The translations under genes were made by a program, and so were the position numbers. Shown piece by piece: positions 9,448-40,272 of a stretch of 64,000 nt of DNA (position 1 is the first letter of the stretch; each line of letters begins with the position of its first letter). The stretch is from Chlamydiota bacterium. GTDB lineage: Bacteria; Chlamydiota; Chlamydiia; Chlamydiales; SM23-39. The stretch spans positions 29,942 through 93,941 of the forward strand of contig DAIDHZ010000001.1 of NCBI GenBank assembly GCA_027451825.1, read 5' to 3'. The notes below the pieces were generated by a model, which worked only from the letters and a program-made list of their open reading frames with translations, did not search any database and was not told the origin of the DNA.

Positions 9448-10035
9448 ATGAATGAAAAAGAAAAAAGATCGCCTCATATTCAGATGGCCCACAAGTATTG
9501 GCAAGGCCACCTTCAGCCCGGAGATTGCGTGATTGACGCTACATGCGGCAATGGCCACGACACTCTTTTTTTAAGTCAAATTGTCCTCTCCGCTGAAGAG
9601 GGAAAAGTCATTGGGTTTGACATTCAAGAAAAAGCCATCATGAATACAAAAGAAAGGCTCAAAAATCACTTACAAGACTCTCAGCTCAATCAAGTTTTTC
9701 TCTTTCACAAACCACATCAAGAACTCAAAAGCATCGCCCTTGAAAAACCGCCTCAACTGATTGTCTATAATCTCGGCTACTTACCCGGCGGAGATAAAAC
9801 AAAAACAACGCAAACACATGAAACCCTTCAAAGCATCGAGCAAAGTCTTGCCATCATTGCAAAAAATGGAGCCCTCTCGATCACCTGTTATCCGGGGCAT
9901 TCGGAAGGAGAAAAAGAAGAAAAAGCAATTCTTCAATACGTCGCATCGCTGCCATCTACAGAATGGGTTGTTTCTTATCATGCTTGGGTCAATCGACCTA
10001 AATCCCCATCCCTTCTTTGGATCGTAAGAATCTGA
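9448..10035 (+). CDS. mnmM: YtqB/MnmM-type class I SAM-dependent methyltransferase
   Basis: DATCGNGHDTLFL, YNLGYLPGGDK and CYPGHSEGEKE align closely with my recollection of B. subtilis YtqB (DATMGNGHDTQFL, FNLGYLPGGDK, VYHGHPEGK). Confidence 0.8.
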   Translation: MNEKEKRSPHIQMAHKYWQGHLQPGDCVIDATCGNGHDTLFLSQIVLSAEEGKVIGFDIQEKAIMNTKERLKNHLQDSQLNQVFLFHKPHQELKSIALEKPPQLIVYNLGYLPGGDKTKTTQTHETLQSIEQSLAIIAKNGALSITCYPGHSEGEKEEKAILQYVASLPSTEWVVSYHAWVNRPKSPSLLWIVRI

Positions 10036-11276
10036 TCCATGATGTAAAAACTTCCACATACAATATTCAGTTCAGCATCATGAAGCACATCCAATACAGA
10101 TGATGAAATGGTGATTGAAGATATACTGTGCGCGGTTAGGTTTTGAAGATTTGGACTGGCTGCGACCTTGCCAAATCGATCTTCGTCGTCGCCCTTCCCA
10201 ATTTGGGAATGGTGCTCCTCCTGCAGACTGCGAGCAATACTCGCTTCGATTTGGCTTTGTCTCGCAGAGTCCAAATCTTCAAAACCTAACCGCGCGCAGT
10301 ATAGATAAGCTTGCAAAACCGATGCAGATTCAAGCCTTGGCTTCTTACTTTCGATGGCCGTAATCGATGCAGCATAAGGCAAGATCTTATCCAAACATGC
10401 CTTCCAATCCTTATCCTTGGAAAAGCTCACAATAAAATGATATTTTTCTTTTGGATAAAAATAAAAAAGCGCTTCTAAAAGTTTTTCAAATCCGCTCTTG
10501 TTATGAGCCACATCTAAAATGACTTTTTTATCATCCACAATTCTTTCTTGAAAACGACATAAAGGCCTCGCCATTAAACCCTTTTCGATCGCTTTTGAAG
10601 AAATGGATAAAAGACGAAGAGCAGATCTTGCAATCTCTTGATTTTCCAAATCAAAAAAAGGAGCAGACTTTGATACAATCGCGTTTGGGAAAAAGGGCGC
10701 TGCGGAAGGACCTACAACAACAGGAATATTACCCTTTACAATCCCCCTCTTTTCTTCTGCAATCTCTTCCAAGGTATTCCCAAGTAAATGCATATGATCA
10801 AAGCCAATCGAAGTGATGATGGCCATCTCAGGCTCAATGATATTTGTCGCATCGAACTTGCCCCCAAGCCCCGTTTCAATCACTGCAAAATCCACTTTCT
10901 TTTCTCGAAAATAAACGAAGGCCAGATGCGTTAAAACATCAAAAAAAGAAAGCCCATATCGATCTAGATCAAACAGCTGTTTTAAAATCCGAAAAAAATC
11001 TTCCTTAGGTATGTGCTCCTCATTGATCTGGATTCTTTCTCGAACATCCACTAAATGAGGCGATGTATAAAGACCTACCTTAAAACCTTCTTCTTGAAGT
11101 GCTTTTGCAATTTTAGTAACAACGGATCCTTTTCCATTGGTTCCTGCCACATGAATCGATTTAAACGCTCGATGAGGATGATCTAAAAGAACATCCATTT
11201 GACGCATGCATGTTAAAGATCTCTCTTTTCTCGTAGGAAGATTGAATAATTTTTGAAGAAGAAAATCATCGTTCAT
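9978..11276 (-). CDS. folC: Folylpolyglutamate synthase / dihydrofolate synthase carrying an in-frame ~60-codon palindromic-element insertion near the C-terminus
   Basis: Mur-ligase P-loop VAGTNGKGS, then TSPHLVDVRERI, DVAHN and the C-terminal VCGSFY. The start is set at ATG 11276 (MNDDFLL); the track start is 11300. The 3' end overlaps the convergent mnmM gene by 58 nt. Confidence 0.88.
   Translation of the reverse strand: MNDDFLLQKLFNLPTRKERSLTCMRQMDVLLDHPHRAFKSIHVAGTNGKGSVVTKIAKALQEEGFKVGLYTSPHLVDVRERIQINEEHIPKEDFFRILKQLFDLDRYGLSFFDVLTHLAFVYFREKKVDFAVIETGLGGKFDATNIIEPEMAIITSIGFDHMHLLGNTLEEIAEEKRGIVKGNIPVVVGPSAAPFFPNAIVSKSAPFFDLENQEIARSALRLLSISSKAIEKGLMARPLCRFQERIVDDKKVILDVAHNKSGFEKLLEALFYFYPKEKYHFIVSFSKDKDWKACLDKILPYAASITAIESKKPRLESASVLQAYLYCARLGFEDLDSARQSQIEASIARSLQEEHHSQIGKGDDEDRFGKVAASPNLQNLTAHSISSITISSSVLDVLHDAELNIVCGSFYIMDQILTIQRRDGDLGRLTQA
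10122..10303. mobile_element. Family B palindromic element (182 bp, ~36-bp terminal inverted repeats) inside folC
   Basis: The left arm TATACTGTGCGCGGTTAGGTTTTGAAGATTTGGACT matches the reverse complement of the right arm AGTCCAAATCTTCAAAACCTAACCGCGCGCAGTATA with 1 mismatch. A second internal arm pair is GCGACCTTGCCAAATCGA / TCGATTTGGCTTTGTCTCGC. Two central hairpins are TTCCC-AATTT-GGGAA and GCGAG-CAATA-CTCGC. The element is open in frames on both strands. Confidence 0.8.
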
Positions 11277-15349: not shown

Positions 15350-15411
15350 AGCTTATCATAAAATCACTTTTTTCTTGCGTTTTTTTAAATGACAACACAA
15401 ATAGAAAATAG

Positions 15412-15521
15412 ATACCGAAACAACTTGAAGAATCGGGAATTTGGCAAGGAGAATTCTCGAAATTTTTATTCGGAGAGAGCAACTATTGCCAAGTTCCCGA
15501 TTCTTCAAGTTGTTTCGGTAT
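15412..15521. mobile_element. Family A palindromic element, short form (110 bp)
   Basis: ATACCGAAACAACTTGAAGAATCGGGAA at the left end pairs with TTCCCGATTCTTCAAGTTGTTTCGGTAT at the right end as perfect 28-bp terminal inverted repeats. It lies between the divergent EamA and SDR genes. Confidence 0.85.
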
Positions 15522-15541
15522 AAGCTTAAAAGTGGAATATT

Positions 15542-37067: not shown

Positions 37068-37875
37068 ATACAAATTCACCGCTGTCCTTGCATTGTGGAG
37101 CTTCATTGCCATTCTCTTCATGGCCATCATAGGCCCTTGGATTTCTTCTTACAACTATTCAGAGATCCATTTAGAGCTCAAAAACACACCTCCCGGGGCT
37201 CAATTTTGGTTTGGGAGCGATGAATTAGGCAGAGATATCTTTAGTCGTGTTTGGTGGGGAGCTCGGGTTTCTTTATTCATTGGATTTGCAGCCGCTCTCA
37301 TCGATACAATTTTAGGAGTTTTATGGGGATCCATTGCCGCTTACTATGGAGGCAAAATCGATGAATTCATGATGCGATGTGCAGACGTTCTTTATGCAGT
37401 TCCTTATACTCTTGTTGTCATTCTTCTCACCGTCATTCGAGGGACCGGAATTCAAACCATTTTAATTGCAATGACACTCACCGGTTGGATCAGCATGGCG
37501 CGCATCTGTAGAAGCCAAATTCTTCAAATCAAACAACTCGACTACATTCTCGCAGCCCATACAATCGGAGCTTCATCTAGCCGCATCGTTTTACGACATC
37601 TCATTCCCAATGCTATCGGACCCATCATTGCCACAATGACTCTAACCATTCCTTCAGCCATCTTTACCGAATCATTTTTAAGCTTTTTAGGTCTTGGTGT
37701 TCAAGCGCCCGCAACAAGTCTTGGATCCATGATCAGCGATGGAGTTGGTGCAATGCGCTATTATCCATGGAGGCTTCTTTTCCCTTCTTTTGCAATCACA
37801 ATGACAATGATTTCTTTAAATATTTTAGGAAATCACTTCAGAGATCTTTTAGATCCCAGAGTCAAAAACCGATGA
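37060..37875 (+). CDS. oppC: Oligopeptide/dipeptide ABC transporter permease
   Basis: HLELKNTPPGAQFWFGSDELGRDIFSR and the EAA loop YILAAHTIGAS. The start is set at ATG 37060, an 8-nt overlap with oppB. Confidence 0.9.
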   Translation: MLKYKFTAVLALWSFIAILFMAIIGPWISSYNYSEIHLELKNTPPGAQFWFGSDELGRDIFSRVWWGARVSLFIGFAAALIDTILGVLWGSIAAYYGGKIDEFMMRCADVLYAVPYTLVVILLTVIRGTGIQTILIAMTLTGWISMARICRSQILQIKQLDYILAAHTIGASSSRIVLRHLIPNAIGPIIATMTLTIPSAIFTESFLSFLGLGVQAPATSLGSMISDGVGAMRYYPWRLLFPSFAITMTMISLNILGNHFRDLLDPRVKNR

Positions 37876-39443
37876 AAAAGCCTCTTCTTACCGTCAAAAA
37901 CCTAACTGTTTGCTTCTCGCATCAAAAAGAACGGATAAAGGCCGTTAAAGACGTCTCATTGACTCTTTTCGAAAGAGAATCTCTCGGAATTGTCGGAGAA
38001 AGCGGATCCGGGAAAACATCCATCATTCAAGCCATCACAAAGCTCTCGGATGCATCCATTGAAGGAGACGTTTTTTTTGAAGATACAAATCTTCTTCAGA
38101 ATCGATCTAAAATTTTAGGAACTAAAATCGGAATGATTTTTCAAGATCCGATGGCAAGTTTAAATCCCATCATGAAAATTGGAGAGCAAATCGCTGAAGG
38201 GATGATCTATCACAAACTTGCAAATCGACAGGTTGCAAAACAAAAGGCGCTCCAACTTTTAAAACTTGTCGGCCTTTCTAATGAAGAACTTCGCTATCAC
38301 CAATATCCCCATGAGCTCAGTGGAGGGATGCGCCAAAGAGTTGCGATTGCGATTGCTCTCGCATGCAATCCGCAACTTTTAATTGGAGATGAACCGACAA
38401 CAGCACTCGATGTGACCATTCAAGCTCAAATCCTACAACTCATCAAAAACATCCAAAAGAACTTCAACATGAGCCTTCTTCTCATTTCTCATGATCTTGG
38501 GGTTGTTTACGAAACATGCGATCGTATTTTGATTCTAAAAGATGGAATGATCGTTGAAGAAGGAGAAACAAAAACTCTTTTTAATTCCCCCAAGCACCCT
38601 TACACAAAAATGCTCATCAATGCCTGGGAACACAGATCTTATTCTTCAACACCACCCGCTCCCATTCATCTTCAAACAAATCAGGCACCTCTTCTTGAAG
38701 TCAAAAACCTCTCAAAACACTTTCTTTTAAAAGATCAAATCATCCACGCTGCCAAATCAATCTCTTTTTCCTTACAAAAAGGAGAAATTTTAGGACTCGT
38801 TGGAGAAAGTGGATCCGGCAAATCAACTCTTGGAAAAATGATTCTAAGATTAATCACCCCTTCCTCCGGACAAATTTTCTTTAAACAAGAAGAAATCTCA
38901 AATCAAAAAAAGAGACATCTCTACCGACAAATACAAATGATTTTCCAAGACCCCGCCTCTTCACTCAATCCTCGAATGACCATTGAAAGCATTTTGAAAG
39001 AACCAACAGATATCCATCATTTACCTCCTCGAGTGGATGAGCTTTTAGATCTTGTCGGCCTTCCTCAAAGCGCTAAAAAAAGATACCCTCATGAATTTAG
39101 CGGCGGACAAAAACAAAGAATCTCGATTGCAAGAGCTCTCAGCTTAAAACCGGATCTCATTGTCTGCGACGAACCCATTTCATCGTTAGATATCCTCATT
39201 CAAACACAAATCATTCATCTTCTCCTAAAGTTACAAAAAGAGCTTGGGCTATCTCTTCTTTTCATCACACATGATCTGACGACAGTGCTCTCGATTGCGA
39301 ATCGAATCGCTGTCATGCAAAAAGGCGAAATTGTCGAACTCAAAGAAAGCAAAACTCTTAAAGAAAATCCGGAGCATCCTTACACAAAGCATCTTCTTTC
39401 ATCCATTCCAAAAATCGAAAAAAAGGTATACTTAACTTTATGA
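37872..39443 (+). CDS. Fused two-domain OppD/OppF-type ABC ATPase
   Basis: Two complete NBDs: GESGSGKT...LSGGMRQR...DEPTTALD and GESGSGKS...FSGGQKQR...DEPISSLD. The start is ATGA-coupled to oppC. Confidence 0.92.
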
Positions 39444-39564
39444 AAGAGGTTCATCCGGTTCAAGCAGCAGCAATTGTCCATACAAATGGCAGAGCGTTCA
39501 TCCACTTCATCACTCGTATGGTCAGAGAATCGCAAAAAGACTACCTAAGATTATTTTTAAAATA

Positions 39565-39746
39565 GAGCCAATTGCAAAACTGCTTTGCCCGGAAAAATCG
39601 ATGATTTTGAGGTCATTTAAGAGGGCAAGCGAGCTTGCCCGATTCACTTCGACGAACCCAACCCCTGGTGGGTTGGGTAAGGAGAGTGAACTTAAATGGC
39701 CCCAAAAGGGCGATTTTAACGGGCAAATGAGTTTTGCAATTGGCTC
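39565..39746. mobile_element. Family C palindromic element or structured RNA locus (182 bp)
   Basis: The left arm GAGCCAATTGCAAAACTGCTTTGCCCGGAAAAATCG pairs with the reverse complement of CGATTTTAACGGGCAAATGAGTTTTGCAATTGGCTC (4 mismatches in 36). Internal hairpins are GGGCAAGC-GA-GCTTGCCC and CCCAACCC-CTGGT-GGGTTGGG. Confidence 0.75.
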
Positions 39747-39753
39747 AATAGCT

Positions 39754-40272
39754 TTAAGAGGACGTTTTAACATCTCCCAAAGAAAGCATCGCCGATCTTA
39801 CACCATAACATAGATTCTGAACAGATTCACCGTTCACAAGTCTTCTCAATTTTTCCACATCCGCATCATTGATAGGAGAGTCGAGAGGACATGGATGATG
39901 ATGAGTTCCACTTGTCCAAACAGAATCTCCTCGATGTCGTTTAAATAGATGTTGAACACCTTCTTCTTGAGAACCATCTGGATGGGTAACCTTATTACGC
40001 ATGACAAGAGAAGTGCTTGAAGGATACCCCTCAATCCCATCAAAAGCTCCCACTAAACGCATTAAAGGAGAGGGTACTTGATCAGGAGGAATCCCATCTG
40101 CAGGATATGTCCCCTGCTGAAACTCAGGGCGAAATGCTAAAACAGGCAATCTACAAAAAGCTTCTGGACCTCCTACAGCATCTACAATTTTTGCAGAAGT
40201 GCCCTCTTGAAGGTATTTTTCAACCTCATACATACATTTCCAAAAAGCAGTTGAATCACTCACCGGCGGCAT
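39754..40272 (-). CDS. Hypothetical protein (172 aa)
   Basis: ORF with somewhat higher GC than its neighbours. No family recognised. Confidence 0.5.
   Translation of the reverse strand: MPPVSDSTAFWKCMYEVEKYLQEGTSAKIVDAVGGPEAFCRLPVLAFRPEFQQGTYPADGIPPDQVPSPLMRLVGAFDGIEGYPSSTSLVMRNKVTHPDGSQEEGVQHLFKRHRGDSVWTSGTHHHPCPLDSPINDADVEKLRRLVNGESVQNLCYGVRSAMLSLGDVKTSS

Follow-up and report, generated by a model that had tools for sequence, protein, structure and literature searches.

An in-frame palindromic insert in a chlamydial folC gene and the dispersed, probably mobile family of protein-coding repeats around it

A palindromic segment within folC

We analysed a 64-kb stretch of DNA from a Chlamydiota bacterium (the window), in which the gene folC, on the reverse strand, carries a 182-bp palindromic segment within its coding sequence (Table 1). 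The identity of the host gene is clear: its product has Mur_ligase_M and Mur_ligase_C domains, scores 272.6 bits against TIGR01499 (cut-off 162.65) and matches the FPGS/FolC structures 1o5z (E = 5e-52), 1fgs and 1w78 in the PDB, and its AlphaFold model superposes on FPGS/FolC structures including 1o5z and 1w78 with Foldseek template modelling (TM) scores of 0.69-0.72. The closest FolC homologue (P0002, 74% identity) lies at locus L089, on contig CAYVDU010000136.1 of assembly GCA_964450765.1, and the gene order PHP-folC-methyltransferase is common to both loci. In the window the 3' end of folC overlaps a convergent methyltransferase gene (9448-10035) by 58 bp (9978-10035), and its 5' end overlaps the upstream PHP-domain gene by 11 bp (11266-11276); both overlaps are kept at the orthologous locus.

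The segment is an imperfect palindrome. The outer 36 nt of its arms differ by one base mismatch, the extended arms (10122-10179 and 10246-10303) reach 58 nt at 84% complementarity, and a second arm pair, GCCAAATCGA/TCGATTTGGC, is nested within them. The coding-strand RNA folds at -109 kcal/mol, against -47.6 +/- 4.1 kcal/mol for dinucleotide shuffles (z = -15), and the DNA at -67 kcal/mol (z = -14). Arm comparison and folding thereby confirm the 36-bp terminal repeats, second arm pair and two internal hairpins that the original prediction had described. The guanine and cytosine (GC) content of the element is 50.5%, against 39.9% for the window, and each strand has one stop-free frame, the other four being closed by TAG and TGA in the arms. 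A promoter and intrinsic terminator scan of the element found nothing above chance, and neither the element nor its peptides matched a family in Rfam (gathering and permissive thresholds), Pfam or NCBIfam. An intein or other in-frame selfish protein element was considered and rejected, the insert being a low-complexity stretch of 61 residues in which Pfam and NCBIfam detect no splicing or endonuclease domains.

Table 1. Coordinates of folC, the palindromic element and its parts in the window (TIR, terminal inverted repeat; ORF, open reading frame)
Feature	Position	Strand	Remarks
Host gene folC	9978..11276	-	432 residues from ATG at 11276 (database protein P0001); mechanical ORF reaches 11300
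Whole palindromic element, TA at each end included	10122..10303	- (sense, peptide-coding orientation)	Palindrome, fold, profile match E = 6.5e-47
Left 36-nt TIR, coding strand, TATACTGCGCGCGGTTAGGTTTTGAAGATTTGGACT	10268..10303	-	Tip TATAC kept family-wide; positions 6-27 vary and co-vary with the other arm
Right 36-nt TIR	10122..10157	-	1 mismatch against left repeat
Left core, conserved, ATTTGGACTCTGCGAGACAAAGCCAAATCGAAG	10244..10276	-	Encodes LDSARQSQIEA motif; major-base frequency 0.88-0.95, all codon positions
Right core, conserved, GCGACGACGAAGATCGATTTGGCAAGGTCGCAGCCAGTCCAAAT	10149..10192	-	Encodes DEDRFGKVAASPN motif; imperfect pairing with left core, asymmetries conserved
Apical hairpin, CCCTTCCCAA T TTGGGAATGG	10192..10212	none	
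Small side hairpin, GCGAGCAATACTCGC	10230..10244	none	Extra 9-bp module: 182-bp class versus common 173-bp class
TA at 5' tip (coding strand), putative target-site duplication	10302..10303		Positions 2-3 of codon CTA, Leu333 of 440-residue ORF
TA at 3' tip (coding strand), putative second target TA	10122..10123		Positions 2-3 of codon ATA, Ile393
Insert peptide, LYCARLGFEDLDSARQSQIEASIARSLQEEHHSQIGKGDDEDRFGKVAASPNLQNLTAHSI, 61 codons	10122..10304	-	L333-I393 of 440-residue ORF; 325-385 of 432-residue P0001
Antisense 82-residue ORF opened by palindrome	10115..10363	+	By-product; no evidence of being a gene

The coding-strand sequence across the junctions is GCT TAT C[TA TAC TGC ... AGT A][TA] TCT TCA. 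Deleting 180 nt, that is the element with one TA, gives LQAYLSSITISSSV, which aligns without gaps, as DNA and as protein, to the orthologue's LQSYAPEIRISSSV. An in-frame insertion of 182 bp had been predicted; the frame stands, but the inserted length is exactly 60 codons (180 bp net), and the 182-bp span includes a TA at each end. Assigning one of these TAs to the target fits a 2-bp TA target-site duplication, which we infer from frame arithmetic only.

The segment is specific to this lineage of FolC, as was anticipated. In an alignment of 15 FolC sequences it is absent from the nearest orthologue and from 13 other homologues, and a homologous segment at the same position was looked for and found in none of the 14. 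The FolC homologues listed besides P0001 are mostly 290-420 residues long, with a few partial or fused proteins beyond that range. The alignment places the insert, whose peptide had been quoted correctly, after the helix that ends in ...SVLQAY and before the conserved C-terminal strand VCGSFY, as predicted.

AlphaFold2 run on this 15-sequence alignment gave a mean predicted local distance difference test (pLDDT) score of 81.7, with the FolC body at about 90 and insert residues 341-390 at 44-58. The insert is modelled as a helix (343-364) followed by coil, with helix 326-338 on one side and strand 396-399 on the other; neither the final strand, 412-416 (VCGSF), nor the last helix is disrupted. 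In this one modelled host protein the insert resembles an excursion on the surface of the C-terminal domain that the fold tolerates. None of the 68 invariant columns of the FolC family alignment is lost, and because these residues and the terminal VCGSFY strand are intact, the insert-bearing FolC is probably still functional. To judge by the sequence, the insert would be translated as part of the enzyme.

Spread and architecture of the family

The folC segment is one copy of a repeat family, here called family B, whose peptide turns up in frame in unrelated genes, as the original prediction had proposed. Six-frame translations of the element were searched against 5.8 billion proteins, and the insert peptide was recovered in about 30 otherwise unrelated proteins. 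The carriers include a PhyH-domain protein, a GT9 glycosyltransferase, a Ser/Thr kinase, LolD, a phosphoglycerate mutase and a MYND-finger protein, as well as a Fic protein, a helicase, LptF/G, a histidine kinase, SctQ and DapB; the source of one carrier glycosyltransferase is labelled Rhabdochlamydiaceae. Orientation and frame are as in FolC in 29 of 31 other carrier proteins, and in none of the 31 is the antisense open frame the best match. The inserts of the PhyH-domain protein and of an MptE-like protein, both found only in NCBI, are 98% and 95% identical, and these two carriers probably come from the same genome as the window.

An exhaustive HMMER scan of 1.84 billion cluster representatives (E <= 1e-3) found the peptide in 79, many of them short ORFs, with a MenF-like protein, MenD, a PurN-like protein and a protein of 3308 residues among the long hosts. 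One candidate from the representatives search, P0174, with six matched stretches, was discarded as a false positive, an unrelated tandem-repeat protein. Scanning Joint Genome Institute (JGI) metagenome contigs with the peptide alignment yielded 98 confirmed sites, from which 80 loci were kept. Hosts confirmed by Pfam include RHS, UDPGP, RecC and Lnt proteins, a UCH-type protease and an ABC-F ATPase, in which the insert occupies the inter-domain linker. Around half of the sites are intergenic, with stop codons near on both sides.

Within host proteins the insert is frequently at the extreme N- or C-terminus, where it is enriched. This enrichment, like the low-confidence excursion of the FolC model, fits the earlier idea of tolerated insertions. 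Some N-terminal carriers are probably gene-caller extensions through an upstream copy. The N-termini of P0130 and P0145 translate another, normally closed frame of the antisense strand (RFGLAATLPN...LAESK..PNRAQY), and these too are probably mis-called extensions through an upstream element.

The elements in metagenomes have a GC content of about 51%, whereas that of their flanks varies between 38% and 57%, which places the family in many genomes. GlmS and FolC of the window have their best named relatives in metagenome-assembled genomes (MAGs) of Chlamydiales, Chlamydiia and Parachlamydiales, at 50-66% identity. A MORN-repeat protein is encoded at 47082-48854 of the window on the reverse strand, and WD40, LRR and Ank/PARP giants lie near other copies (in the flanks of loci L007 and L008). 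Such eukaryote-like repeat proteins are typical of amoeba-associated chlamydiae, and the taxonomic placement is consistent with them. A 20-mer from the element arm, TAGGTTTTGAAGATTTGGAC, scanned through a genome collection made up of genomes other than the window's own, matched once each in six Latescibacterota MAGs (L001-L006). These matches have no inverted partner and are not the element, which suggests a conserved sequence of the Latescibacterota's own.

This spread makes it hardly credible that the palindrome arose in sequencing or assembly, for instance as a chimeric inverted duplication within a metagenome-assembled genome. The genome is represented by a single assembly, and the identical database protein P0001 derives from the same 160,744-bp contig. 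Against this, more than 80 independent contigs from many samples share the architecture, tips and core; the folC frame is kept exactly, with both junctions clean; and the arms are imperfect and asymmetric in a family-typical way, unlike a fold-back chimera.

Both tips are present in 58 copies, of which 53 were aligned at the DNA level. The 173-bp span is the commonest (37 copies), followed by 164 bp (8), 182 bp (4), 170 bp (3) and 172 bp (2), with single copies of 174, 212, 251 and 290 bp. Spans of 3n+2 account for 55 of the 58 copies and 7 of the 9 length classes (binomial p = 0.008 by classes). The long variants, seen in sample Ga0169931 (L062 4002-4291; L077 1423-1673; L029 7472-7683), consist of the 173-bp form with a nested 39-bp hairpin module, a 78-bp module or both. 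The 39-bp module, which encodes HTGSPPMHHRKGC, lies within the left core, and the 78-bp module (AAETREGPVDL...) precedes the right core. Each is 3n and stop-free, and the long variants point to modular nesting of in-frame cassettes.

Among 55 distinct complete copies, the sense frame is stop-free in 41, with stops in the remaining 14, and forms part of a long ORF in 22 (10 internal, 8 at the 5' end and 4 at the 3' end), whereas the symmetric antisense frame is stop-free in 36 and in a long ORF in only 4. This difference in long-ORF use is fivefold (22/55 versus 4/55; Fisher p = 8e-5). That the sense orientation is preferred although both frames are usually open speaks for tolerance of the hydrophilic sense peptide and against tolerance of the antisense peptide, which is rich in Cys, Trp and Arg. 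The opposite-strand ORF noted in the original prediction does exist, but as a by-product that is rarely used across the family. The prediction's suggestion of selection for stop-free elements fits both the 3n+2 spans and the open sense frames.

The tips, TATAC...GTATA, are conserved: A4, C5 and the mirrored G and A are invariant, the outermost TA slightly less so, and TA is found at both ends of the folC copy and of most of the 58 complete ones. Inside them, arm positions 6-27 differ widely between copies while complementarity is kept. RNAalifold on the aligned copies gave 46 pairs, 29 of them with compensatory double changes. Pairing holds for 95.6% of cells, whereas shuffled columns give 82.3% and sliding one side by 1-3 columns gives 22-40%; double-change cells number 279 against 73 expected. 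These values are reached in 0 of 500 shuffles. At the apex the hairpin is kept but its sequence is swapped among sub-families for different self-complementary sequences, such as GCCCTGCCCC/GGGCAGGGC and GGCCATAG/CTATGGCC. G-T wobble cells outnumber A-C cells on the sense strand by 75 to 32, a count uncorrected for shared ancestry, which gives a weak hint of single-strand pairing in sense polarity.

Two core blocks, ATTTGGACTCTGCGAGACAAAGCCAAATCGAAGCG and GACGAGGAGGATCGATTTGGCAAAGTCGCAGCCAGTCCAAAT, are conserved, and they pair imperfectly with asymmetries that are themselves conserved. Third codon positions of the core have an entropy of 0.44-0.47 and a major-base frequency of 0.88-0.89, compared with 0.25-0.30 and 0.93-0.95 at the first two positions. 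As third positions are only slightly more variable, it is chiefly the nucleotide sequence of the core that is conserved, and any coding signature is faint at best. One sub-family has the conserved core with wholly different outer arms and tips (CTTAAGGGCTCGTAACGAAATAACTTCCGC...), at L008 around 10100-10290 and in P0133, P0140, P0144 and P0151; it shows an internal frame switch, encodes the peptide ..ITSAFGLCETKPNRSE..HHSQIGKGDEEDRLG.V.SPN.EVISLRA and resides in an epimerase, LptF/G and other proteins.

These data bear on whether the segment is a feature of the protein, either an ancestral FolC linker or a shuffled domain kept for the function of its peptide. The peptide motifs DSARQSQIEA and EDRFGKVAASPN are well conserved, third codon positions of the core vary slightly more than the other two, and a single orientation dominates in genes. 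However, the segment is absent from all other aligned FolC homologues, about half of the copies are intergenic, stops interrupt the sense frame in 14 of 55, and the compensatory arm changes of the palindromic DNA scramble the encoded residues. Together with the missing Pfam or NCBIfam domain and the pLDDT of 44-58 across the insert, this largely refutes the explanation, which we hold to be highly improbable.

Covariation that keeps pairing, a wobble bias on the sense strand and a very stable mRNA hairpin (-109 kcal/mol) could also be read as signs of a host regulatory RNA, a double-strand RNase target or translation brake within the folC mRNA that is kept for its function, and transcripts of Correia and ERIC elements are reported to modulate mRNA via RNase III or RNase E (PMC2229807). 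Copies nevertheless occupy arbitrary positions of unrelated genes and intergenic DNA, the nearest folC orthologue works without the element, Rfam has no match, terminator and promoter signals are not above chance, and there is no tie to folate regulation. We therefore regard a regulatory role as improbable and give it very little weight.

Mobility and the route of spread

The clearest sign of recent transposition in our sequence data comes from sample Ga0155551, where 170-bp copies at L070 2619-2788, L073 2465-2634 and L071 2464-2633 are 100% and 98.8% identical and have unrelated flanks. Several further pairs of copies share 95-98% identity. None of the DNA copies retrieved is more than 82% identical to the one in the window; that the window's own genome nevertheless holds recent copies is indicated by the near-identical peptides of P0121 and P0122.

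We conclude, with a probability of roughly 0.8, that the folC segment is a copy of a non-autonomous, TA-flanked, protein-coding palindromic element resembling miniature inverted-repeat transposable elements, or MITEs, whose family is dispersed in uncultured Chlamydiota. Such an element would be mobilised in trans by a putative transposase, and its symmetric TA-flanked tips suggest, by analogy with what is assumed for Correia, ERIC and RUP elements, an enzyme of the cut-and-paste type. Landing in sense orientation in an NTA codon, with TA as codon positions 2-3, would leave the host gene untruncated and add a hydrophilic peptide of about 57-60 residues, predicted to form a helix and then a Gly/Asp/Glu-rich coil. 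In folC the point of entry would have been Leu333 (CTA), which in the C-terminal domain lies after a helix and before the penultimate strand, and 60 residues would have been added. Where there is little intergenic DNA, a genic copy may survive only if it is a multiple of three, stop-free in the frame that is read and harmless as a peptide, and the surviving copies would persist at permissive places such as loops, linkers and termini. Selection among insertions may thus be the cause of the stop-free 3n design.

Several observations weigh against this conclusion. The window holds one copy only, a second copy of family B not having been found within its 64 kb, and the only empty site available is that of an orthologue at 74% identity, with GCG in place of the window's CTA. 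A search of the window and 562 kb of related loci revealed no transposase or autonomous element with matching tips. The copies were retrieved via sense-frame peptide motifs, which may inflate the open, 3n fraction reported above. Finally, MITEs usually have conserved TIRs and a free interior; the free complementary arms and conserved core of family B are the reverse of this pattern, which suggests that a folded single strand is recognised rather than the TIR sequence.

That last point favours spread through a folded single-stranded DNA or RNA hairpin recognised at its base and conserved internal loops, for instance by an HUH/Y1-type enzyme of the kind that serves REP/RAYT or IS200/IS605, or by an RNA-level route, with no DDE transposase that duplicates TA. 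Several features agree with such a route: arms that vary yet stay complementary, with an apical hairpin that co-varies too; an asymmetric core conserved across genomes of 38-57% GC; the sense-strand excess of G-T over A-C cells (75 versus 32); the sub-family that keeps the core with other tips and arms (L008; P0133, P0140, P0144, P0151); and the failure to find a DDE element with family tips in the window and the 562 kb of loci. Yet symmetric TA-flanked tips and a net length that fits a 2-bp duplication typify cut-and-paste MITEs, Correia, ERIC and RUP among them, whereas IS200/IS605-type elements have asymmetric ends and make no duplication. The wobble excess, moreover, is uncorrected for shared ancestry, and symmetric protein-binding sites in both TIRs would also give arm co-variation. 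We think a hairpin intermediate unlikely.

More speculative, and a proposal to which we give only slight credence, is that family B is altogether a structure-recognised hairpin instead of a TIR-driven MITE. Here the asymmetric core would be the mobility module, the arms and the 39- and 78-bp cassettes would be exchangeable parts (3n and stop-free), and the whole would have evolved to colonise the coding sequence of gene-dense intracellular genomes; it might then supply a common N- or C-terminal peptide tag to dozens of chlamydial proteins.

Other palindromes occur in the window. Copies of a family A lie at 15411-15522, 18953-19118 and 56337-56504, with a partial inverted copy at 56034-56146, and have the tips TATACCGAAA...TTTCGGTATA. 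One lies within the 5' part of the ORF at 56241-57209, leaving its frame open, one ends the ORF at 18801-19118 and one is intergenic. The 166-bp span of family A is 164 bp net, not a multiple of three, unlike family B. The original prediction had called the two families unrelated in sequence; they are indeed two families, but the TATACCG tip of family A recurs in family B, and the tips TATACCG...CGGTATA are common to both. Family-A-like tips are also present in metagenome loci L064, L068 and L070. Three tip pairs 0.5-2.9 kb apart, with family-A-like tips, were considered as autonomous insertion sequences; the two tip pairs inspected, in L064 and L070, enclose ordinary genes such as lgt, rlmH and an SDR gene, so that these were rejected as separate small elements. 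A third, unrelated palindrome at 39562-39749 (ATAGAGCCAATTGCAAAACTG...), between the ORFs at 37767-39443 (forward strand) and 39754-40272 (reverse strand), has 39-nt arms that are 87% complementary and 110 nt apart.

Kinship with known repeats and implications

Intragenic MITE-like repeats that carry ORFs are a known class (PMC2229807, PMC10969869, PMC3184786), which includes Rickettsia palindromic elements (RPEs), Wolbachia palindromic repeats, ERIC/RU-1, the 107-bp Correia form and Coxiella QMITEs. RPEs make 44 insertions in genes of R. conorii, and a gmk enzyme with an RPE is still active (reviewed in PMC2229807, PMC10969869, PMC3184786). RPEs (Ogata et al. 2000, 2002) and Wolbachia repeats (Ogata et al. 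2005) are palindromes of about 105-150 bp with an open frame in obligate intracellular bacteria, and like family B they are both intergenic and in frame within unrelated conserved genes, as tolerated surface additions (PMC2229807, PMC10969869). Family B shows this RPE-type behaviour, an open-frame palindrome lying in frame in unrelated conserved genes and, by the structural model, at a tolerated site in FolC. It differs in its host, Chlamydiota as opposed to the Alphaproteobacteria that harbour RPEs and Wolbachia repeats, in its length, which is 164-182 bp and up to 290 bp with nested modules, and in having TA at both tips in nearly all copies, as RPEs do only sometimes. Its arms vary with compensatory changes around a conserved asymmetric core, a feature compared on the family B side only. 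The family B peptide matched no NCBIfam or Pfam model, the comparison being one of peptides with such models. TIGRFAM models of RPE domains exist, their presence in the searched library being unverified.

With the ERIC/RU-1, 107-bp Correia/NEMIS and RU-2/RU-3 elements of enterobacteria and Neisseria (Delihas 2007, 2008), family B shares TIRs, 5'-TA-3' termini and, putatively, TA duplication (PMC2229807, Table 1), as well as transcripts that fold into long stem-loops and ORFs fused in frame to host genes (PMC2229807). However, those elements are mainly intergenic, with intragenic fusions exceptional, their tips and sequences are unrelated to those of family B, and no strict 3n length series is reported for them. 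QMITE1 and QMITE2 of Coxiella burnetii, reportedly the subject of work by Wachter et al. in 2018, are said to be MITEs that enter genes of this intracellular bacterium and add to their coding sequence. In sequence and host they are unlike family B.

REP/RAYT systems offer a possible analogue for structure-based recognition, being hairpin repeats whose structure, not sequence, is conserved outside a short tag. REPs, however, are extragenic, 20-40 bp long and marked by a GTAG/CGTC tag (PMC3733652), whereas family B elements are 164-182 bp long, TATAC-tipped and often intragenic. The folC element, at 182 bp, with TATAC tips and within a gene, accordingly falls outside this group. Set beside the MITE-like elements of Delihas 2008 (Table 1), family B has TIRs with a stem-loop, TA termini and many dispersed copies with recent movement; the folC element, at 182 bp, is within the MITE-like size range of about 100-400 bp, its 61-residue frames match no Pfam or NCBIfam family, and it contains no transposase gene. 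The TA flanks are consistent with a MITE derived from IS630/Tc1-mariner elements, but an IS630-family transposase was not found in the window and the 562 kb of loci. The tips of family B (TA followed by TACYR) are unlike the CAGT tips of Tc1.

Family B thus shares the defining behaviour of the known class, and TA tips with most of its members, yet by host and by the models tested it is a member of none of the families compared. Our literature search, whose coverage was incomplete so that a prior description is possible, found no report of palindromic or MITE-like elements in Chlamydiae, and Chlamydia is not mentioned in a 2024 MITE review. The finding is not categorically new: its kind is known, and the family itself is previously undescribed as far as we found in the literature.

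Palindromic repeats that code for protein were first described as characteristic of Rickettsia, and subsequently of Wolbachia as well. Family B is their analogue, apparently unrelated to them in sequence and far more diverse, in a second, unrelated lineage of obligate intracellular bacteria, which suggests convergent evolution of 'gene-compatible' selfish DNA where intergenic space is scarce. Its metagenomic copies number at least 80 and fall into clear length classes, and with their covarying arms and conserved core they provide richer data than RPEs on what a mobilising machinery recognises. Additionally, family B would account for spurious N-terminal extensions and short ORFs in carrier genomes, and annotators and structure predictors should treat the inserts of 57-60 residues in chlamydial FolC, MenD, MenF-like proteins, DapB, LolD and SctQ as scars of a mobile element.

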